Below are positions 47,830-59,515 of a stretch of DNA of 64,000 bases, piece by piece. The notes under the pieces are model-generated. The model ran no database searches. It was not told the DNA's origin and saw only the letters and a list, made by a program, of their open reading frames with translations. The translations under genes were made by a program, and so were the position numbers. Where the stretch lies: the NCBI RefSeq assembly GCF_053078305.1, contig NZ_CP166879.1. One strand, 5' to 3'. Each line of letters starts with the position of its first letter. Positions within the stretch are counted from its first letter, which is position 1.

Positions 47830-48102
47830 ATGGCGCACGATATCAAACATCACAATTCTGATACCGGCCCTGCCAGCAGGCACGGGCGGCGTTCTCACAC
47901 ATTCAAATCTGACTGGTTCCTGCATGACCCATGCACTGAAGAACAGGCCGAATGGCTGATTCAGTGCTACCGCAGACGCGGGTATAAGTTTGAGAAAGCC
48001 CTCAGTCTTGACCGTCGCCACTGGATAATCTCCGTCAGGCTCCCTTATTCCGAACGCCCACCGCGTCCGTCCCGTACATTCCAGCAGCGCATCTGGAGGT
48101 AA
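47830..48102 (+). CDS. Hypothetical protein
   Basis: Translation MAHDIKHHNSDTG...; GGAGA SD 7 nt upstream. Confidence 0.45.
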   Translation: MAHDIKHHNSDTGPASRHGRRSHTFKSDWFLHDPCTEEQAEWLIQCYRRRGYKFEKALSLDRRHWIISVRLPYSERPPRPSRTFQQRIWR

Positions 48103-48103
48103 C

Positions 48104-49153
48104 GTGCGGGTATTACTTCGACCTGTTCTGGTACCGGAACTCGGGATGGTGCTCCTAAAGCCGGGCCGTGAATCAATGTCAGCATTCCATAACGGCAGAA
48201 TATTGGTGGAGCCGGAACCGAAAAACATGCGCGGTCTGCCGTCCGGAGTCGTTCCTGCCGTTCGACAGCCGCTGGCAGAGGATAAAACATTACTGCCATT
48301 TTTCAGCAACGAACGGGTGATTCGTGCTGCGGGTGGCGCTGGTGCACTGTCTGACTGGTTATTACGTCACGTGAAATCCTGCCAGTGGCCACACGGTGAT
48401 TATCATCACAGCGAAACTGTCATTCACCGTTACGGTACCGGCGCGATGGTGTTGTGCTGGCACTGCGACAACCAGCTGCGCGACCAGACATCAGAATCAC
48501 TCGATCAACTTGCTCAGCAGAATCTGGTTGCCTGGATGATTGACGTTATCCGTCACGCAATAAGCAGTACGCAGGAGAGGGAGTTATCGCTGGCCGAATT
48601 ATCCTGGTGGGCGGCCTGCAATCAGGTGGTGGATGCACTACCTGAGGCAGTAGCGCGTCGTTCGCTGGGATTACCAGCGGAAAAAATCCGCTCCGTATAC
48701 CGTGAGAGTGACATCGTACCGGGAGAACAGACAGCCATCAGCATACTGAAGCAGCGCACAAAAAATATTGCGCTGCCACTTCACGTCCACCAGCAACAAA
48801 ATCCACCACAGAAAAAAACGGTTGTCAGTATCGCCGTTGATCCGGAGTCTCCTGAATCGTTCATGAGGCGGCCTAAACGTCGCCGTTGGGTTAATGAGAA
48901 ATACACGCGCTGGGTAAAGACACAGCCGTGTGCGTGTTGTGGTAAGCCTGCTGACGATCCGCATCACCTGATTGGTCATGGTCAGGGGGGAATGGGGACA
49001 AAGGCCCACGATATTTTCACGCTACCGTTGTGCCGGGAGCACCACAACGAACTTCATGCAGACCCGCTGGAGTTTGAGAAAAAGTACGGCTCTCAGATTG
49101 AGTTAATTTTTCGTTTTCTTGATCACGCCTTTGCGACTGGCGTGCTCGGGTAA
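48104..49153 (+). CDS. ydfU: YdfU-like prophage protein (DUF968)
   Basis: 349-aa ORF; C-terminal CACCGKPADDPHHLIGHG...LPLCREHHNELH Cys/His cluster; same length and position as Qin YdfU. Confidence 0.55.
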   Translation: MRVLLRPVLVPELGMVLLKPGRESMSAFHNGRILVEPEPKNMRGLPSGVVPAVRQPLAEDKTLLPFFSNERVIRAAGGAGALSDWLLRHVKSCQWPHGDYHHSETVIHRYGTGAMVLCWHCDNQLRDQTSESLDQLAQQNLVAWMIDVIRHAISSTQERELSLAELSWWAACNQVVDALPEAVARRSLGLPAEKIRSVYRESDIVPGEQTAISILKQRTKNIALPLHVHQQQNPPQKKTVVSIAVDPESPESFMRRPKRRRWVNEKYTRWVKTQPCACCGKPADDPHHLIGHGQGGMGTKAHDIFTLPLCREHHNELHADPLEFEKKYGSQIELIFRFLDHAFATGVLG

Positions 49154-49165
49154 AAGAGGTGACTG

Positions 49166-49525
49166 ATGCTCATAGATTTGGTTTTACCTTACCCGCCGAC
49201 GGTGAACACTTACTGGCGACGCCGTGGCAGCACATATTTTGTATCAAAAGCAGGGGAGCGTTATCGCCGGGCAGTGGCACTTATTGTTCGCCAGCAGCGG
49301 CTGAAATTAAGCCTGTCCGGACGGCTGGCAATAAAAATTATTGCAGAGCCACCGGATAAGCGTCGTCGTGACCTGGACAATATTCTGAAAGCACCGCTGG
49401 ATGCGCTGACGCATGCGGGAGTGCTCATTGATGACGAGCAGTTTGATGAAATCAATATTGTACGTGGTCAGCTTGTTCCTGGTGGTCGGTTGGGTGTGAA
49501 GATTTACAAAATTGAGAGTGAGTGA
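49166..49525 (+). CDS. rusA: Holliday junction resolvase RusA
   Basis: 119-aa ORF MLIDLVLPYPPTVNTYW...RRRDLDNILKAPLDAL matching RusA. Confidence 0.85.
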   Translation: MLIDLVLPYPPTVNTYWRRRGSTYFVSKAGERYRRAVALIVRQQRLKLSLSGRLAIKIIAEPPDKRRRDLDNILKAPLDALTHAGVLIDDEQFDEINIVRGQLVPGGRLGVKIYKIESE

Positions 49526-50094
49526 GCGTAAATATGATATATCCGGAAATTACAGGCAAAAGCGGCGAACATTTACGCCTGAACACGCTGGAAGCAGTCT
49601 GGATCCAGGGGAAATTACGGATGTGGGGGCGGTGGTCGTATATCGGTGGGGGTAAATCCGGAAATATGTTTAACCGGTTACTGGTTTCGAAGAAGCTGAC
49701 GAAAACAGCAGTTAATGAGGTTTTACGCAGAATGAAGAAATCCGGGCTGGAAAAACCGGAACTTGAGGCATTTTTTCGGGATATGACCAGAGGGAAGCAG
49801 AAGAGCTGGTTGTCACATTGTACAGACACAGAGGCGTTGATTATTGATCGCGTTATCAGTGAGGTGCTTGGGGAATATCCCGGGCTAATCAATATTCTCC
49901 GGCAAAGGTACGAAGGACGGGGAATGAGCAAACTGAAAATGGCCGAAAGGTTAAATGCAGATCATCCTGAGTGGACGTTGGTTACGTGCAGACGCCGAAT
50001 TGATCAGTGGTTGGGGATATCTGAATTTATGTTACATGCCCCCATGCGTATGGCTTTTGTTACAGAGAAAAAAATGTTGCAAACTGATCAATAA
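49522..50094 (+). CDS. Putative late-gene antiterminator (Q-like)
   Basis: 190-aa ORF between rusA and the terminators/tRNAs; assignment by position and loose resemblance to QuuD-type Q proteins. Confidence 0.45.
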   Translation: MSVNMIYPEITGKSGEHLRLNTLEAVWIQGKLRMWGRWSYIGGGKSGNMFNRLLVSKKLTKTAVNEVLRRMKKSGLEKPELEAFFRDMTRGKQKSWLSHCTDTEALIIDRVISEVLGEYPGLINILRQRYEGRGMSKLKMAERLNADHPEWTLVTCRRRIDQWLGISEFMLHAPMRMAFVTEKKMLQTDQ

Positions 50095-50163
50095 ACTGCT
50101 TCAATCCGTATAAGCTTCGCAAGGCTGTATCGCGAGGCGAAACGCAAGTTTTTTCGCACAAGG

Positions 50164-50187
50164 AAGCCACCGGAAGGTGGTTTTTTT
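50164..50187 (+). terminator. Intrinsic terminator about 70 nt downstream of the Q-like gene
   Basis: CCACC-GGAA-GGTGG hairpin followed by TTTTTTT. Confidence 0.6.
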
Positions 50188-50310
50188 GTGTCCGTAATAT
50201 ACAGCAGCGCAATAAATTCGCTGGTGGTTATTAATACCGTTCTTTCAGCTTGCTGGCTTGTTCGACAAGAGTTATTGGTGTGTCACGTTAACCGGAAAAA
50301 GGAAAAAGAC

Positions 50311-50508
50311 ATGCTGAAACAGCAGGATATGACCGAAACCGCCAGAGTGGTGTTTAATGAATTAAGCGTCACAGAACCGGCGACAGTCGGGGAGATTGCG
50401 CAGAATACTTACCTTTCACGCGAACGCTGTCAGTTAATACTGACCCAGCTGGTTATGGCGGGTCTGGCAGACTATCAGTTCGGTTGTTACAGACGCCTTC
50501 AGTCCTGA
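50311..50508 (+). CDS. Hypothetical small protein, possibly winged-helix
   Basis: Translation MLKQQDMTETARVVFNELSVTEPATVGEIAQNTYLSRERCQLILTQLVMAGLADYQFGCYRRLQS; AAGGA SD upstream. Confidence 0.45.
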   Translation: MLKQQDMTETARVVFNELSVTEPATVGEIAQNTYLSRERCQLILTQLVMAGLADYQFGCYRRLQS

Positions 50509-50520
50509 AGGCTTTTTTAT
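50495..50520 (+). terminator. Intrinsic terminator overlapping the stop of the small ORF
   Basis: GCCTTCAG-TCC-TGAAGGC hairpin followed by TTTTTTAT. Confidence 0.65.
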
Positions 50521-50658
50521 TTGTGGTAAATGGGCGGCTGGTGGGTGTTAGGGGCACTCACCAGCCATCTGCTCATGCGTCCGGATCACAAGCAAACCTC
50601 AGGCCCACTGCTTTGCGCAAAAGCAGAATGAGCCTATCAGAGACAGGCTTAATGATCC

Positions 50659-51717
50659 ATGCTTAATACTGTAAAAATATCCAGTTGTGAGTTAATCAAC
50701 GCCGACTGCCTGGCATTTATCCGGTCGTTACCCGAAAATTCTGTTGACCTGATAGTCACGGACCCGCCGTACTTTAAAGTGAAGCCTGAGGGCTGGGATA
50801 ACCAGTGGAAGGGCGACGATGATTACCTGAAGTGGCTGGACCAGTGTCTTGCGCAGTTCTGGCGGGTGCTGAAACCTGCCGGAAGTCTTTACCTGTTCTG
50901 TGGCCATCGCCTGGCATCTGATATCGAAATCATGATGCGTGAACGCTTCAGTGTGCTGAACCATATTATCTGGGCAAAGCCGTCCGGACGCTGGAACGGG
51001 TGCAACAAGGAAAGCCTGAGGGCGTATTTCCCCGCCACAGAGCGCATTCTGTTCGCGGAACATTATCAGGGGCCGTATCGTCCGAAAGATGCCGGGTATG
51101 AGGCGAAGGGCAGGGCACTGAAACAGCATGTGATGGCCCCGCTGATTGCTTACTTTCGTGATGCGCGTGCTGCCCTGGGGATAACGGCAAAACAGATTGT
51201 GGATGCCACAGGAAAGAAAAACATGGTGTCGCACTGGTTCAGTGCCAGTCAGTGGCAGCTACCGAACGAAAGCGATTATCTGAAATTACAGGCGCTGTTT
51301 GCCCGGGTGGCAGAAGAGAAGCATCAGCGCGGTGAACTGGAAAAGCCCCACCACCAGCTGCTGGAGACGTATACTTCACTGAACCGGCAGTATGCGGAAC
51401 TGCAGAGTGAATATAAGCATCTGCGGCGGTATTTTGGCGTGACGGCGCAGGTGCCGTACACCGATGTGTGGACGCATAAACCGGTGCAGTACTATCCCGG
51501 GAAACATCCGTGCGAAAAACCGGCAGAAATGCTGCAGCAGATAATCAGCGCGAGCAGTCGTCCGGGGGACCTGGTTGCAGATTTTTTCATGGGGTCGGGT
51601 TCGACAGTCAAAGCCGCGATGGCGCTGGGGCGTCGTGCAACTGGCGTTGAGCTGGAGACTGAACGTTTTGAGCAGACGGTCAGGGAAGTACAGGATTTAG
51701 CCAGTCAGAACGGATGA
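50659..51717 (+). CDS. DNA methyltransferase (N6-adenine/N4-cytosine, DPPY type)
   Basis: N-terminal LIVTDPPYF and C-terminal FFMGSGST motifs; 352 aa with a long insert between them. Confidence 0.8.
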   Translation: MLNTVKISSCELINADCLAFIRSLPENSVDLIVTDPPYFKVKPEGWDNQWKGDDDYLKWLDQCLAQFWRVLKPAGSLYLFCGHRLASDIEIMMRERFSVLNHIIWAKPSGRWNGCNKESLRAYFPATERILFAEHYQGPYRPKDAGYEAKGRALKQHVMAPLIAYFRDARAALGITAKQIVDATGKKNMVSHWFSASQWQLPNESDYLKLQALFARVAEEKHQRGELEKPHHQLLETYTSLNRQYAELQSEYKHLRRYFGVTAQVPYTDVWTHKPVQYYPGKHPCEKPAEMLQQIISASSRPGDLVADFFMGSGSTVKAAMALGRRATGVELETERFEQTVREVQDLASQNG

Positions 51718-51757
51718 TATTGCAGTATTAGTTACGTACCGTTATTATCCTGCACCC

Positions 51758-51833
51758 GGCCCTTTAGCTCAGTGGTGAGAGCGAGCGACTCATAATCGCC
51801 AGGTCGCTGGTTCAAATCCAGCAAGGGCCACCA
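51758..51833 (+). tRNA. tRNA with CAU anticodon, ileX-like (tRNA-Ile2 lysidine type)
   Basis: Cloverleaf GGCCCTTTAGCTCAGTGGTGAGAGC...ACTCATAATCG...GGTTCAAATCC...AAGGGCCACCA; close to E. coli ileX. Confidence 0.75.
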
Positions 51834-51842
51834 TATCACATA

Positions 51843-51919
51843 CCGCCATTAGCTCATCGGGACAGAGCGTCAGCCTTCGAAGCTGGTTGCGCGGGGTTCG
51901 AGTCCTCGATGGCGGTCCA
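51843..51919 (+). tRNA. tRNA-Arg (anticodon TCG)
   Basis: Acceptor stem CCGCCAT/ATGGCGG, anticodon loop CTTCGAA, T-loop GGTTCGAGTCC, 3' CCA. Confidence 0.7.
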
Positions 51920-51932
51920 TTATCGGTATTCA

Positions 51933-52009
51933 GCGTTGTTAGCTCAGCCGGACAGAGCAATTGCCTTCTAAGCAATCGGTCACTGGTTCGAATCCAGTAC
52001 AACGCGCCA
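51933..52009 (+). tRNA. tRNA-Arg (anticodon TCT)
   Basis: Acceptor stem GCGTTGT/ACAACGC, anticodon loop CTTCTAA, T-loop GGTTCGAATCC, 3' CCA. Confidence 0.75.
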
Positions 52010-52178
52010 TACTTATTTTTCTGGCTCGCTTTTGCGGGCCTTTTTTGTATCCGCGCCACGCCCGGCGCATATCAACCACAGAGCCTTTCGGGGGTGAGCT
52101 TACGGAGTGGTCAGTGTGACTTTCTCTGTGGGCAGATCGCTCCCGGGCGTTGGCTCACCCACCCAAAGGAACGTCACG

Positions 52179-52610
52179 ATGTTTGGTATTTTCAAAAAGA
52201 AAACCCGCAGAGCAGCAACGGAAATTAAAAAGTTTGAGAAACGCGATCTGGCACAGGCGGTTATTAATGCTGCCTACCTGGTAGCCTATGCAGATGGTGA
52301 ATGTGAGGCTTCAGAGAAAGCGAAGATCGAACAGGTATTACGTAACCAGCCTGCGTTGTCCGCGTTTACGTCAGAAATTAATGCCATCAGTGCCACGATC
52401 ACAGGTCAGCTTGACACCAACTTTAAAATTGGTCGTCGAGCGGCGTTGCGTGAAATTGAAGATGTGAAACACGATACGCGTGAAGCGGAAGATGTGCTGG
52501 ATGTGGCGGTGGCTATTGCTGAAGCAGATGGTGAAATTGAGCCGGAAGAGCGTAAGGTTCTGGAAGAGATTGCAGGTGTTCTTGGCCTGCGACTGGAGAA
52601 CCACCTGTGA
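52179..52610 (+). CDS. TerB-domain protein
   Basis: Translation MFGIFKKKTRRAATEIKKFEKRDLAQAVINAAYLVAYADGECEASEKAKIEQVL...AIAEADGEIEPEERKVLEEIAGVLGL; AAAGGA SD upstream. Confidence 0.6.
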   Translation: MFGIFKKKTRRAATEIKKFEKRDLAQAVINAAYLVAYADGECEASEKAKIEQVLRNQPALSAFTSEINAISATITGQLDTNFKIGRRAALREIEDVKHDTREAEDVLDVAVAIAEADGEIEPEERKVLEEIAGVLGLRLENHL

Positions 52611-52771
52611 CGGTAAAACTGCGTCTGGCCGCTGTGGCACTCCTGCTGTTTCTGGTGGTGATGGTGGATTTCACCAGCAGGATCATGTCGGTGCTGGCGG
52701 ATGGAGTGCTGGTGGTCGGTATTGTGGTGGTGCTTTTTCCTTTGGTGAAAAAGGACATGCCAGGTAGTTAG
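52607..52771 (+). CDS. Possible small hydrophobic protein translationally coupled to the TerB-like gene
   Basis: GTG overlapping the upstream TGA (GTGA), GGAGA 7 nt upstream; 54 codons, two hydrophobic stretches; below the track length cutoff. Confidence 0.3.
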   Translation: MTVKLRLAAVALLLFLVVMVDFTSRIMSVLADGVLVVGIVVVLFPLVKKDMPGS

Positions 52772-53019
52772 CCGGGTATCAGTCATGCCCCGAAAATTTT
52801 AAATGTCTCACAATTCAGACGGTTGACAGTTGTCTGTTTTGCGGGGAGTTTGTTAAAAGAAACTGGCATGGTGAATCCCCCTGAGCGGAGGGGCGACTGG
52901 TGCATTAGGTGTTATCTTTGATACCTAGGAAAGTGAACGCGCGGGTTTGGTTGCACCGGGCTGAACTCACCGGGAGGCACCCGGCATCATGCGCATGATG
53001 ATACAGATACGCGGCTTTA

Positions 53020-53046
53020 GCCCCTCTCCGGAGGGGCTTTTATATG
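53020..53046 (+). terminator. Intrinsic terminator
   Basis: GCCCCTC-TCCG-GAGGGGC hairpin followed by TTTTATATG. Confidence 0.6.
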
Positions 53047-53072
53047 AATTTTGTAAGATATGAGTAAACTAA

Positions 53073-53408
53073 TTATGGACACTGTTGTTTTAGTCCGTAA
53101 GGGCATATTTGCAGAATGCAATGATTATTAAAGCATTCTTTCAATACGTTATCTGAATTTGCAGGACATTCCTGGCTGTTTTTGATTAAATCCCAGAATC
53201 TTTTATTGAATGGTACAACGTTGTAAATGGTTACAGGTAGCACTTTGTTATTAAGTACGATACCTGTGTGAGTCAACGTAAATATACTTTCAGGAGGTAA
53301 GAAAACATCCGATTGATACCAGATTATTAATTTTATTTTACTCCATATGGCTGAAAAAGATATTCCGCATGATGGCTGGATAACTGTATCAATCACAATC
53401 CACTTCAT
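53073..53408 (-). CDS. Hypothetical Cys-rich protein on an AT-rich antisense island
   Basis: 111-aa ORF with AAGGAGG SD 5 nt upstream of the ATG; seven Cys, five in the C-terminal third; region visibly AT-rich. Confidence 0.55.
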
Positions 53409-53661
53409 TTAGCCTCCTTATTTATGCTGTGCTGGTGATGTTCTGAAAAGTATAAATGATAATTTTGAATGTAAACCATAGAGCAGAATTATTTTTCTGA
53501 TGTTGTTTATTTAAATACAGGTTTTTTATATCCCGTCTTGTAGTTTATCCATGCATACCTGCTTTATGATGAGGTTTTCATTTAAGGTATGGTTTTGTGT
53601 TTTTTTCTGTATTTCATGTCAGGTATTTTAAAGAATTGTTTTTAATATGGTGGAAAGAACC

Positions 53662-55629
53662 ATGGCATTTAAACACTACGATGTGGTCAGGGCGGCGTCG
53701 CCGTCAGACCTTGCGGAGCGACTGACTCAAAAACTGAAGGAGGGGTGGCAGCCATTTGGCAGTCCTGTCGCCATCACGCCTTATACCCTGATGCAGGCCA
53801 TTGCGGCGGAAGGTGATGTCACCACACCTGTGCTGGTGAAGCCGTCGGATGGAGAAGGCACAGTTATCAGCACCACCAGCGAACCGGAGTATTACTTTGT
53901 TGTTGTTCTGGCGGGGCAGTCAAACAGCATGGCATATGGTGAAGGCCTTCCGCTGCCGGAGACATATGACCGTCCGGACCCGCGTATTAAGCAGCTGGCG
54001 CGCCGCAGTACGGTGACACCGGGCGGTGCCGCCTGTAAGTATAACGACATTATTCCGGCGGACCATTGTCTGCATGATGTGCAGGACATGAGCCGTCTTA
54101 ACCATCCGAAAGCGAACCTGTCAAAGGGGCAGTACGGAACCGTGGGGCAGGGGCTGCATATCGGCAAAAAACTGCTGCCGTTTATACCGGCGAATGCGGG
54201 CATTCTGCTGGTTCCGTGCTGCCGTGGTGCTTCGGCATTCACAACGGGTGCAGACGGCACATACAGCGAATCAGCCGGTGCATCGGAAAATTCACTGCGC
54301 TGGGGTGTGGGTAAGCCGCTGTATCAGGATTTGGTGAGCCGGACTAAAGCCGCACTGGCGAAGAACCCGAAAAACCGTCTGCTTGCGGTGGTGTGGATGC
54401 AGGGAGAAGGTGATGCGGCAGTGGGGACGCATGCGCAGCATCCGGGGCTGTTTAGTGCGATGGTGAATCAGTTCAGAACGGAGCTTGCCGGTCTGGCATC
54501 ACAGAGCACAGGAGGCAGCGCATCAGCGGTACCGTGGATTTGCGGGGACACAACGTATTTCTGGAAGCAGCGTCATGCGGAAGGGTATGCATCAGTATAC
54601 GGAGGGTATAAGGGTAAGGAGTCGCAGAACATTTTCTTTGTACCGTTAATGACGGATGAGAATGGTGCGAATGTGCAGACCAATGACCCGGCAGAAGACC
54701 CGGACCTGGAAGCCGTCGGTTATTACGGTTCAAAGTGGCGTAATGACCAGAAGACCTGGACATCTGTGGACAGGGCAAGCCATTTCAGTTCATGGGCACG
54801 CCGTGGGATTATTTCCGACCGTCTGGCAACGGCGATTCTGGTGCATGCCGGGAGAACTGCTGAATTCATTACCGGAAAACAGCCTGATACGGTGAAGCCC
54901 ACCGGACCTTCCGGTGAAGGCCCGGAGAGAGAGCCGGAAGCCCCGGTCAGTAACCGAACCCTGATGAGTCTGCTGGCGTCCGGTGAAGACCTGGCATCAC
55001 AGGGCTGGCGCTATTATCACAAACCGGCGAGCGGAGACAATGTTGATAAAAACATCGCTGAGGCTGTGGTCAGTGATGAGGGTGCCACCGGTGGTAAGGC
55101 CCTGCAACTGAACAAACCGGAAAGCCACATCTGGTTTCTGGAGCATGATGCCGCCGGGCAGGGGGCAGAGTTGCTGAAGAAAGGCGGACGTGTGAGCGTA
55201 CGGTTTAAGGTGCCGGGCTCACTGGTGCCGAATCAGTTTGCCCTGGGTATTTACTGGCAGTTGTCGTCCCTGCCGGAGGGAGTGACGCTGGCAGAGGAAG
55301 GCAACGACATGCTGATGTCCTTCTTCCTGCAGACGGATGCGACGAACCTGAACGCGATGTACCACAAGAAGCAGAATGCGAAGCTGGATACGTTCGGGGT
55401 CTTTGATAACGGATGGCACACACTGGCTTTTGAGTTTGCCGGAAACAACAGCATTCAGGTGACGCCGGTACTGGATGAGAAACGGGGTACACCGTTCACA
55501 CTGGTGAAATCTCCGGCATCAGGGGCGGCGGACAAACTGCAACTGACAGGCATATCAAAGGCGGCGACATATACGTTGCTGATTGACAGTGTGAAGGTGG
55601 AAGTGAACAACGCGGACGCCGCGGCATGA
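53662..55629 (+). CDS. Prophage O-acetyl sialic acid esterase NanS-p-like protein (DUF1737 + SGNH/DUF303)
   Basis: About 655-aa ORF; N-terminal MAFKHYDVVRAASPSDLAERL... segment and VVVLAGQSNSMAYGEG esterase motif; located after the tRNAs and before the lysis genes as in Stx phages. Start could be the ATG at 53647. Confidence 0.7.
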   Translation: MAFKHYDVVRAASPSDLAERLTQKLKEGWQPFGSPVAITPYTLMQAIAAEGDVTTPVLVKPSDGEGTVISTTSEPEYYFVVVLAGQSNSMAYGEGLPLPETYDRPDPRIKQLARRSTVTPGGAACKYNDIIPADHCLHDVQDMSRLNHPKANLSKGQYGTVGQGLHIGKKLLPFIPANAGILLVPCCRGASAFTTGADGTYSESAGASENSLRWGVGKPLYQDLVSRTKAALAKNPKNRLLAVVWMQGEGDAAVGTHAQHPGLFSAMVNQFRTELAGLASQSTGGSASAVPWICGDTTYFWKQRHAEGYASVYGGYKGKESQNIFFVPLMTDENGANVQTNDPAEDPDLEAVGYYGSKWRNDQKTWTSVDRASHFSSWARRGIISDRLATAILVHAGRTAEFITGKQPDTVKPTGPSGEGPEREPEAPVSNRTLMSLLASGEDLASQGWRYYHKPASGDNVDKNIAEAVVSDEGATGGKALQLNKPESHIWFLEHDAAGQGAELLKKGGRVSVRFKVPGSLVPNQFALGIYWQLSSLPEGVTLAEEGNDMLMSFFLQTDATNLNAMYHKKQNAKLDTFGVFDNGWHTLAFEFAGNNSIQVTPVLDEKRGTPFTLVKSPASGAADKLQLTGISKAATYTLLIDSVKVEVNNADAAA

Positions 55630-58579: not shown

Positions 58580-59515
58580 ATGAAATGTGTACTGTATTCC
58601 GGTGACTGTCTTGATGTTATGCCTTCATTACTACCGGGAAGTGTTGACCTGGTTTTATGTGACCCGCCGTATGGAACCATTAAAGGGCTTACACTCCGTA
58701 CATGGGATAAGAGTACGACAGCATGGGACGATGCCTTAAATCCTGAAGATATTTTCACACAGTGCGAACGACTGCTGAGGGTGGGCGGTGTGCTGGTCAT
58801 GTTCAGCCAGGAGCCGCATACAAGCACGATGATTACTCTGGCGGATAAAAACCTGCCGTTTTTATATCGTATGGTGTGGAAGAAGGAGCATTTCCCCAAC
58901 CCGCTTTCAGTAAAAAAAGCACCTGTATCTTTATTCGAGGATATCGTTGTTTTCCGGAAAAAATATGACAGTGAGAAAAACCACCCGCTGAGGGAGTACG
59001 CCCGAAATATCCTTTCTTTCATTGGCCACAGGACAGACAAGGAAGTTAACAAAACACTGGGGCACTGTCGGGCAGAGCATTTTTTTCGCGTGAACACAGT
59101 CCAGTTTTCCCTCTGCTCACAGGATACGTACAACGAGTTAATTAAACGCTTTGGTATCGACCGTATGCCGGGTTTCATGACATATGAAGAAATGTGCAAA
59201 GTGAATTCCGGTTACGGCACTGTGGTTTTTAATCTCCCTCAGGGGAAAAAATACCGCGCAAATATTCTGGAGTACGCGCGGGAGCGGGAGCGATGGCATC
59301 CGACCCAGAAGCCAGTTGCATTACTGGAAGAGCTGATTCAGACGTACAGCAACCCTGGCGACAGGGTACTGGATTTTACTATGGGGAGTGGTTCAACAGG
59401 TGTTGCATGTATCCGGACGGGGAGACGGTTTACCGGAATAGAAAAGGATGACCGGTATTTCGCTGTTGCAAAAAAACGTCTGGAAAAAGAAAACAGTGAA
59501 ATGGTGGTGATATGA
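58580..59515 (+). CDS. DNA methyltransferase (DPPY type), second copy, inserted between endolysin and Rz
   Basis: N-terminal LVLCDPPYG and C-terminal FTMGSGSTG motifs; stop overlaps the Rz start. Confidence 0.8.

Follow-up and report, generated by a model that had tools for sequence, protein, structure and literature searches.

What lies between the Q-like antiterminator gene of a lambdoid prophage and the methyltransferase and tRNA genes behind it, where two strong intrinsic terminators bracket an open reading frame (ORF) of only 65 amino acids (aa): a single late regulatory region, or something more composite? We address this question for a 64,000-nucleotide (nt) stretch of Escherichia coli DNA (NCBI RefSeq assembly GCF_053078305.1, contig NZ_CP166879.1; here called 'the window'), which carries a lambdoid prophage that is Shiga toxin (Stx)-phage-like but stx-less. 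An original prediction had likened the layout to a late promoter/terminator region and had treated it as one module. The likeness is supported by comparative and structural evidence; the unity is not, as only the first terminator belongs with the Q-like gene (as the predicted tR'), whilst the second terminator, the 65-aa gene, the methyltransferase gene and the tRNA genes form a separate mobile cassette. We consider it probable that the region is a lambdoid late regulatory switch, with a mobile cassette inserted in the leader of the late operon.

The DUF1133 protein as a homologue of Q21

Profile, fold and BLASTP comparisons all bear out the earlier suspicion of an antiterminator upstream of the terminators. 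The Q-like protein is matched by Pfam DUF1133 (E 5e-104) and, weakly and ranking below that model, by PF06530 (i-E 4e-6), the Pfam family of Q21, with lambda Q and Q82 being represented by PF03589 and PF06323 respectively (Yin et al., PMC9388147); its PHROG label reads 'anti-termination protein Q-like'. NCBIfam gave no family above cut-off for this protein, for the 65-aa protein or for either methyltransferase of the window. A DUF1133 profile built from 26 proteins, 43-87% identical to the window protein, and searched against all PDB sequences matched only Q21 chains (6P18/6JNX; E 1.4e-8, with the next match at E 0.25), in an alignment spanning the N-terminal W..G.L..WG.W.Y.G motif and residues 56-154 of Q21; BLASTP of the window protein against the Q protein of phage 21 returned 23% identity over 181 aa (E 1e-7).

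The AlphaFold2 model of the protein has a mean predicted local distance difference test score (pLDDT) of 62, rising to 80-96 in the C-terminal half, and displays the Q21 fold, i.e. a sigma-region-4-like body with a helix-turn-helix-type motif; the 12 best PDB matches found for it with Foldseek are all Q21 chains (probability 1.0, target-normalised template modelling score 0.58-0.71). Taken together, the profile match and the predicted fold show the DUF1133 protein to be a remote but clear homologue of the antiterminator Q21. Compared with Q21, DUF1133 proteins are longer by ~30 residues in the part corresponding to the RNA-exit 'torus' of Q21, and the long loop of its helix-turn[loop]-helix is missing from them. 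The gene also has the canonical placement of Q, with ninG-like and rusA genes ahead of it and the lysis genes behind it.

A conserved, predicted late switch at the end of the Q-like gene

The comparison of the region downstream of the Q-like gene drew on 80 loci from viral contigs, whose Q proteins are 77-100% identical to that of the window, and on 18 loci from genomes, with 45-81% identity. The latter come from Citrobacter, Phytobacter, Enterobacter, Klebsiella, Raoultella, Kluyvera, Pluralibacter, Silvania, Superficieibacter and Tatumella. In 17 distinct lineages, spanning about 10 enterobacterial genera, the 3' end of the Q gene presents the same layout: TTGnnn, exactly 17 nt, [TGn]TTnAAT, exactly 5 nt, and TAnnCT, followed by a ~25-nt block that comes in one of two unrelated versions and then by a strong intrinsic terminator whose sequence varies among the lineages. 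Only a truncated contig and the two loci from Tatumella depart from it. In the window the composite pattern is found a single time, with an expectation of 0.03.

The original prediction had pointed, without confidence, to a possible TTGCAA-17 nt-TTCAAT promoter overlapping the Q stop codon, and it is exactly this pair that proves to be the conserved element in the 17 independent lineages. In the window the stop codon (50092-50094) sits inside the spacer of the predicted late promoter pR', whilst in many lineages it is embedded in the TTnAAT hexamer itself. Within the third element, the predicted sigma-dependent pause element (SDPE), the critical A2 and T6 are invariant. Two alternative readings of these hexamers were tried and rejected: TATAAG (50109-50114) as the -10 or pause element, given that only the TAAGCT register is conserved elsewhere, and TAAGCT as the true -10, there being no suitably spaced -35 for it and the TTG-17-first hexamer arrangement being invariant.

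The closest known system is Q21/pR'21 of phage 21 (PDB 6P18/6P19/6JNX). The GenBank record of that phage gives, in order, a -35 (TTGACA), two parts of the Q-binding element (QBE) within the spacer (QBEu, ATTGAGCA, and QBEd, AATGAGCA), a -10 (AACACT), the start site, an SDPE (TAAGCTG), a terminator and then tRNA genes. When the window, its relatives and phage 21 are aligned on the pause hexamer, the window TAAGCT is identical to the hexamer within the annotated SDPE, and the candidate QBE falls at -28..-21 and -20..-13, the same positions, and so at the same distance from the hexamer, as QBEu and QBEd. The homologous Q, the order of the elements, a hairpin that starts at the GCT of the hexamer, and a terminator with tRNA genes downstream of it are likewise shared. 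At the QBE register, loci from Enterobacter, Kluyvera, Silvania, Phytobacter and Salmonella have AGTGAGCA/AGTGAGCC plus AGnAAGYG-like octamers, with AGTGAGCA/AGTGAGCC being identical to phage 21 QBEu at 7/8 or 6/8 positions.

The two systems differ in that the -35 and -10 of the window stand 2 nt closer to the pause hexamer and the candidate QBE agrees with the phage 21 sequence only in part; because of this 2-nt shift the predicted transcript start is the A of TAAGCT (~50112), 7 nt after the -10. The first hairpin is itself the terminator in phage 21, whereas in the window it is separate from the terminator, and the leader measures ~76 nt as against ~50 nt in phage 21. A comparison of Q-protein columns with the two versions of the initial transcribed block picked out only four discriminating columns, which are confounded by phylogeny and on which we rest nothing. 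The conserved layout and its counterpart in phage 21 support the reading of the region as a Q21-type late switch, whose predicted promoter would be the one guessed earlier and whose terminator would be read through in a Q-dependent manner.

Terminators and the predicted leader RNA

Both terminators bracketing the 65-aa ORF are present where they had first been noticed, as judged by sequence inspection and by our own hairpin scan. A first scan with an existing tool had found terminator 2 on the + strand and terminator 1 on the - strand only. Our own scan, which called hairpins with a free energy (dG) <= -7 kcal/mol abutting at least five T residues, returned five + strand sites in the 64 kb, three of them at 50167-50187, 50495-50518 and 52023-52046; with three of the five sites of the whole window falling here, the clustering is not a matter of chance.

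Terminator 1 is formed by the hairpin CCACC-GGAA-GGTGG, with a stem that reaches 13 bp in the predicted RNA as an upstream A-rich run pairs with the U tract. Its position, 62-77 nt from the predicted start, is kept in all lineages by sequences that are unlike one another, and homology to phages that share the downstream cassette begins only past it. Refining the earlier reading, we assign terminator 1, on these sequence comparisons, to the Q module as its predicted tR'. In an Enterobacter metagenome-assembled genome (L090) and in Kluyvera (L100), two tandem intrinsic terminators lie ~65-105 nt past the predicted start.

Terminator 2 consists of GCCTTCAG-TC-CTGAAGGC at 50495-50512, followed by TTTTTTATTT. 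Its GCCTTC/GAAGGC stem and T6 tract are kept in all 80 analysed loci that have the 198-nt small ORF, and in Stx2c phages and other genera a hairpin persists over the stop codon through different sequences (e.g. CCTCCCT/AGGGAGG).

From its start to the end of the U tract, the predicted leader RNA of the switch is 76-77 nt long and is made up of a 5' hairpin, a small hairpin and the terminator; the 77-nt form folds with -30.2 kcal/mol (z -4.0), and 14 of the 17 lineages retain a hairpin that begins at +2/+3, in either of the two unrelated sequence versions. A good fold and a persistent hairpin would also suit a different account, in which the transcript between the Q gene and terminator 1 is mainly that of a trans-acting small RNA (sRNA) gene, StxS- or IsrK-like, with the terminators defining sRNA and mRNA isoforms. 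There are precedents for this: StxS, from Stx1/Stx2a phages, is itself an RNA running from pR' to tR' and has regulatory activity (PMC7547250), and in Gifsy-1 IsrK is placed just past the Q-like antQ gene, with a partly read-through terminator, a small ORF and a further gene behind it (PMC4825925).

With StxS the window shares a short late-promoter RNA, here a predicted one, that ends at tR' in lysogens and, in the case of Stx2a, a position upstream of the same methyltransferase/tRNA cassette; StxS differs in being 258 nt long and processed to 74 nt, and in belonging to another Q/pR' module, with no sequence similarity seen to the window leader. The Gifsy-1 isrK-orf45-anrP arrangement is a functional analogue: like the predicted layout of the window, it has a promoter right behind a Q-like gene, a short RNA ended by a terminator, and transcription that partially continues into a small ORF with a further gene after it. 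Its downstream genes differ; antQ itself probably belongs to another family, because no Salmonella phage record occurs among the DUF1133 matches. A search of Rfam 15 covering the leader RNA (50112-50188) gave no match at E <= 1 within 48000-54000 beyond tRNAs, STnc100 and chance-level matches, and the Q-downstream leaders of 12 related loci gave none at E <= 0.1, with IsrK being specifically sought; hence neither here nor in the relatives is there an Rfam match to IsrK or to any other sRNA family. Moreover, what is conserved is a set of promoter-like DNA hexamers at fixed spacing, which fits loading of Q, and an sRNA would in any case be compatible with a late switch, StxS being both. We therefore think it unlikely that an sRNA is the main business of this transcript. 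As part of a late switch, which we prefer, the RNA released in lysogens would, by analogy, be the counterpart of lambda 6S RNA and of StxS.

The lambda system itself is a more distant comparison. Lambda Q belongs to a protein family unrelated to Q21, with a different fold and a different mode of QBE recognition, and the lambda pR' leader is 194 nt long. What lambda Q/pR'/6S RNA/tR' shares with the predicted layout of the window is a constitutive promoter behind Q, a -10-like pause element and a short terminated RNA ahead of the late genes (PMC9388147).

A portable cassette in the late-operon leader

By megablast against phage genomes, many Stx2a-converting phages and phage 1720a-02 match the window from 50210/50219 to 52057 at ~97% identity (97.8% for the cassette DNA of the latter). 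This stretch takes in the small ORF, terminator 2, the methyltransferase gene and the tRNA genes; none of these phages shares the Q gene or terminator 1. In the Stx2a phage Stx2_EH2201 the cassette stands behind a 126-aa Q and that phage's own terminator, and is directly followed by stx2A/stx2B, and in phage P27 it precedes stx2e. Where small-ORF homologues occur in Salmonella, Klebsiella and Buttiauxella, a ~350-aa PF01555 methyltransferase follows them.

The pair of small ORF and methyltransferase gene is found behind three Q families (DUF1133, PF06323 and PF06530), just before holin and endolysin genes. Among 237 viral-contig methyltransferase loci, searched for a Q gene at most 1.2 kb upstream, 45 had a Q82-type, 18 a DUF1133 and 10 a 126-aa Q21-type protein there. 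Since it is found behind different Q families, the cassette is a Q-independent passenger of the late-operon leader, and on these homology boundaries we take it (50220-52046) to be a portable unit inserted there.

The left junction of the cassette coincides with a Chi site (GCTGGTGG), which is kept in three of the compared loci (L002, L082 and L101). A second Chi site (GCTGGTGG, 50537-50544, +) marks the point where homology to the Stx2c-type methyltransferase module starts and where some E. coli variants diverge, such that both mosaic junctions of the cassette (50220-50227 and 50537-50544) carry Chi. The second site forms the 5' arm of a conserved leader hairpin, described below, and the commonest E. 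coli variant has an opposite-strand Chi in the 3' arm. With 17 Chi sites in the window, against 2.3 expected from shuffles, some coincidence is possible.

The coordinates of all these features, and of those discussed below, are collected in Table 1.

Table 1. Features of the predicted late switch, the inserted cassette and their surroundings (window coordinates).
Feature	Position	Strand	Basis
Q-like antiterminator gene, 186 aa, divergent Q21-family member	49534..50094	+	Pfam DUF1133
Predicted late promoter pR', -35 (TTGCAA)	50077..50082	+	TTG invariant, 17-nt spacer in 17 lineages
Candidate Q-binding element, ACTGATCA + ATAAACTG	50083..50098	+	Phage 21 QBE register, inferred
Predicted extended -10 of pR' (TGc TTCAAT; hexamer 50100-50105)	50097..50105	+	[TGn]TTnAAT in 17 lineages
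-10-like TAAGCT, predicted sigma-dependent pause element	50111..50116	+	5 nt after -10 in all 17 lineages
5' hairpin of predicted leader RNA	50114..50138	+	Predicted minimum-free-energy fold
Terminator 1, predicted tR' (core hairpin 50167-50180, T7 50181-50187)	50159..50187	+	Hairpin and T run
Chi site, cassette left junction	50220..50227	+	Stx2a homology starts at 50210-50219
65-aa winged-helix-like gene	50311..50508	+	ATG, AAGGA Shine-Dalgarno 8-9 nt upstream
Terminator 2, overlapping the stop codon of the 65-aa gene	50495..50520	+	Hairpin and T run
Conserved structured methyltransferase leader, 138 nt	50521..50658	+	Alignment, fold
Beta-class N6-adenine DNA methyltransferase gene, 352 aa, M.EcoGII homologue	50659..51717	+	Pfam, identity
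Three tRNA genes (CAT anticodon, Arg-TCG, Arg-TCT)	51758..52009	+	tRNA scan
Third intrinsic terminator, cassette end	52023..52046	+	Terminator scan

The 65-aa gene and the methyltransferase leader

The 65-aa ORF is a real gene under purifying selection, with a ratio of non-synonymous to synonymous polymorphism (pN/pS) of 0.15 and polymorphic sites distributed 6/8/26 over the three codon positions. Pfam gives weak winged-helix matches for its product (TrmB at 0.003, MarR, DprA_WH), NCBI names it 'TrmB family transcriptional regulator', and it belongs to PHROG 331. A 106-aa extended form beginning at GTG 50188 was rejected, given a variant with a 1-nt deletion in the upstream part and the good Shine-Dalgarno sequence before ATG 50311; RefSeq also calls the 65-aa form. 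The gene accompanies the methyltransferase in 246 of 291 loci. In one Klebsiella aerogenes contig (L107, 3195-3883) the small gene, the leader and the first methyltransferase codons are kept with no methyltransferase gene being called; the pair can therefore be broken by deletion. As far as we have searched, the co-inheritance of a small winged-helix gene with M.EcoGII-type methyltransferases is apparently undescribed.

Between terminator 2 and the methyltransferase gene lies the conserved leader, for which diverse loci had to be gathered: a first search gave close relatives only, and two further scans with distant queries were added. The 44 distinct leaders obtained (from E. coli, Salmonella, Klebsiella, Buttiauxella, Tatumella and metagenomic phages) align with a mean identity of 84%. 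Setting aside the P27 and Stx2c sequences, which are close relatives, and the outlying Tatumella one, the leaders are 79-84% identical to that of the window, whereas the gene next to them shows 43-54% at its third codon positions. The fold has a z-score of -4.5. Hairpin P1 (50536-50566), which contains the second Chi, is kept with a few compensatory changes, and helix P2 consists of six pairs (50568-50573 with 50591-50596), with the pair of highest mutual information in the whole alignment, 50570/50594 (CG 17, AU 15, UA 9, UG 2; 98% paired), sitting at its centre. With RNAalifold the covariation term was close to nil (-0.31), and some of the pairings came out differently. Further helices (P3/P4) and a pairing beside the start codon are unsupported, real covariation being confined to P2.

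A 33-aa ORF within the leader (50530-50631) was rejected, and the 138 nt are taken as non-coding, because it carries an in-frame TAG at codon 8 in most variants. The leader sequence holds no Shine-Dalgarno sequence before the methyltransferase ATG, and a GATC is invariant 2 nt before the start codon. No Rfam family matches the leader (50521-50658). A covariance model made from it matches only upstream of M.EcoGII-type methyltransferase genes, once in the window, with no match before the second methyltransferase gene (58580-59515); a related methyltransferase gene in Tatumella (L099) is preceded by a diverged leader that scores 99 bits against the model and retains the hairpin, though not the Chi. 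Strong conservation and one well-supported helix make this leader a candidate cis-regulatory RNA which, as far as we have searched, is apparently undescribed.

These observations raise the question of whether the cassette might govern itself, i.e. whether the 65-aa protein and the methyltransferase form a self-controlled unit in the style of the controller (C) proteins known from restriction-modification systems, largely independent of Q, with the small protein regulating transcription of the methyltransferase gene and terminator 2 and the leader acting as an attenuator. The genes do travel together behind three Q families, the small protein has its weak winged-helix matches and TrmB-family name, purifying selection on the leader is strong and one of its pairs clearly covaries, and the hairpin over the small-ORF stop codon is kept through different sequences. 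Against this, the cassette is always in the late operon and in late orientation, no operator-like repeat was identified, at least one locus (L107, above) has the small ORF without the methyltransferase, and M.EcoGI and M.EcoGII are reported to be silent in lysogens (PMC5778455). A consensus sigma-70 scan of the + strand from 48500 to 53500 likewise found no site and thus no obvious promoter inside the cassette, yet it also missed the pR' candidate, because TTCAAT lacks A at position 2. On balance, self-control of this kind appears to us improbable. Under the Q-dependent late switch that we favour, a toxic methyltransferase would stay off in the lysogen because its gene lies behind one terminator after another and a structured leader, and has neither a recognisable promoter nor a Shine-Dalgarno sequence.

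Methyltransferases and tRNA genes

The original prediction had named a 352-aa DPPY-type methyltransferase followed by a tRNA cluster, and both are confirmed. The enzyme is matched by Pfam N6_N4_Mtase (PF01555; E 3e-43) over residues 29-340, and has the beta-class motif order (DPPY at residues 35-38, FMGSGST at 310-316). M.EcoGII, with its sequence taken from a PDF table (Supplementary Table S1 of PMC11551740), is identical to the window enzyme at 328 of 348 aligned residues (94%); the ~20 substitutions, a few of which may stem from misread letters, are concentrated at residues 234-262 and at the C-terminus. A PDB sequence search with the enzyme returned distant beta-class enzymes only, and no M.EcoGII structure.

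Murray et al. (PMC5778455) describe M.EcoGII as a non-specific beta-class adenine methyltransferase with a near-twin, M.EcoGI, both from E. coli O104:H4 prophages; M.EcoGII is unexpressed in the lysogen and harmful when expressed, and phage 1720a-02 has a very similar enzyme. The window enzyme shares with these two the beta-class motif order, a prophage location and the enzyme family of phage 1720a-02. Homologues from O111, with ~93% similarity, are 'nonspecific' by prediction only, with no corresponding methylation in lysogens (PMC6602927). The passages on M.EcoGII that we read in the literature contain no description of a position behind Q-dependent terminators or of the conserved leader.

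The window also holds a second beta-class methyltransferase (58580-59515; 311 aa, N-terminal DPPY), placed between the lysis genes and terminase-sized ORFs and without the conserved leader; at 26% identity to the first, it agrees with the earlier remark that the prophage has two methyltransferases of the same class with different sequences. The first of the three tRNA genes is called as Met (CAT) by ARAGORN, and related records annotate it as ileZ/tRNA-Ile.

Prophage context

Over its full length, the 2.8 kb around the module is 98.4% identical to E. coli strain GE3. Among 5,426 complete E. coli genomes, 3,439 contain parts of it, and 640 records cover 80% of it or more. In the RefSeq annotation of GE3 the order is DUF968 protein, RusA, DUF1133 family protein, hypothetical protein, DNA-methyltransferase, tRNA-Ile, two tRNA-Arg, and then TerB-family and DUF3927 proteins, and the window has the same gene order. 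Farther downstream in the window there are an STnc100 RNA match, a 660-aa esterase-like ORF, the lysis genes, the second methyltransferase gene and the terminase-sized ORFs.

The TerB-family (143 aa) and DUF3927-like small genes (52179-52771) occupy the position that stx2AB has in the Stx2a phages sharing the cassette. The STnc100 match is strong (141 bits; 52837-53049, +) and ends in a terminator-like hairpin at 53019-53038. This element comes directly after stx2B in an Stx2a phage, and only ~160 nt past the Q stop codon in a Klebsiella prophage without inserted genes (copies at L002 5704-5915 and L093 3239-3430); it therefore has the look of a fixed landmark of the late operon, and the 'morons' (methyltransferase cassette, tRNAs, stx, TerB) look like insertions between tR' and the STnc100 element. 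A 111-aa ORF on the - strand (53073-53408; PHROG 4407, of no assigned function) stands at the position annotated iraM in an Stx2a phage.

Discussion

Synthesising the comparisons above with the general Q mechanism (PMC9388147; bioRxiv 10.1101/651190), we propose the following model. RNA polymerase with sigma-70 would start near 50112 and pause after ~15 nt, as sigma rebinds TAAGCT. In the absence of Q, transcription would stop at terminator 1, with release of a ~76-nt RNA. After induction, Q would bind the spacer DNA at 50083-50098, load onto the paused polymerase and render it terminator-resistant, such that the modified polymerase could cross terminators 1, 2 and 3 into the 65-aa gene, the methyltransferase gene, the tRNAs, the morons and the lysis and structural genes. 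The methyltransferase would presumably be made late only, modifying progeny DNA against restriction.

A number of observations weigh against this model, or against parts of it. The predicted -10, TTCAAT, does not have the A found almost universally at position 2 and was not called by the consensus promoter scan, and the predicted pause hexamer, spanning ~-1 to +5, is 2 nt nearer to the -10 than in phage 21. Only the upstream half of the candidate QBE resembles that of phage 21 (ACTGATCA agrees at 6/8 positions, ATAAACTG at 2/8), and other E. coli classes differ again at this register. The N-terminal half of the protein model is of low confidence, and for this reason the 'torus' segment is unresolved in it. 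In the two Tatumella loci (L098 and L099), which have the most distant DUF1133 homologues (45-50% identical), the promoter/pause/terminator architecture is absent right after the gene. The U tract of terminator 2 is strong only in the 198-nt E. coli-type cassette and weak in the Stx2c-phage and other-genus versions. Non-specific methylation by the window enzyme is inferred from its 94% identity to M.EcoGII, and our full-text search of the literature found no paper naming DUF1133.

The missing A, the Tatumella homologues and the silence of the literature, together with the fact that many such prophages are defective, might be taken to mean that DUF1133 is a non-working antiterminator, with terminator 1 merely ending the early-right (nin) operon and the hexamers being an unrelated conserved feature or a relic. 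Such a reading would have to accommodate homology to Q21 over the full length of the protein, including the N-terminal WG.W.Y motif, the canonical position of the gene, and a match to phage 21 that is kept element by element across genera while the flanks and the terminator sequence change. We regard it as very improbable, and retain the working late switch.

As far as we have searched, the placing of DUF1133 within the Q21 type, and the predictions made here of its promoter, pause element and binding site, are apparently undescribed. A bolder proposal, which we hold tentatively and would not yet favour, has two separate parts. In the first, the leader would act as an undescribed cis-regulatory RNA, gating translation or stability of the toxic, non-specific methyltransferase late in phage development, possibly together with the 65-aa protein and the stop-codon hairpin. 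In the second, DUF1133 proteins would be a branch of their own among Q21-type antiterminators, set apart by a larger exit-channel 'torus' segment and by promoter and pause elements at altered spacing.

In kind, the region is a standard Q/pR'/tR' arrangement with a known type of passenger gene; a lambdoid late switch of the textbook type, such that the finding itself changes little. Its value lies rather in placing a widespread family, DUF1133, annotated only as 'Q-like', in the Q21 type, with predictions of promoter, pause and binding site that are directly testable. It would also supply a structural reason for the silence in lysogens of the M.EcoGII family, whose members are used in biotechnology, namely a position in the late operon behind up to two terminators and a leader. 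Finally, the cassette sits between the late promoter and stx2 in Stx2a phages, and its terminators and leader therefore lie on the path of Shiga-toxin transcription.

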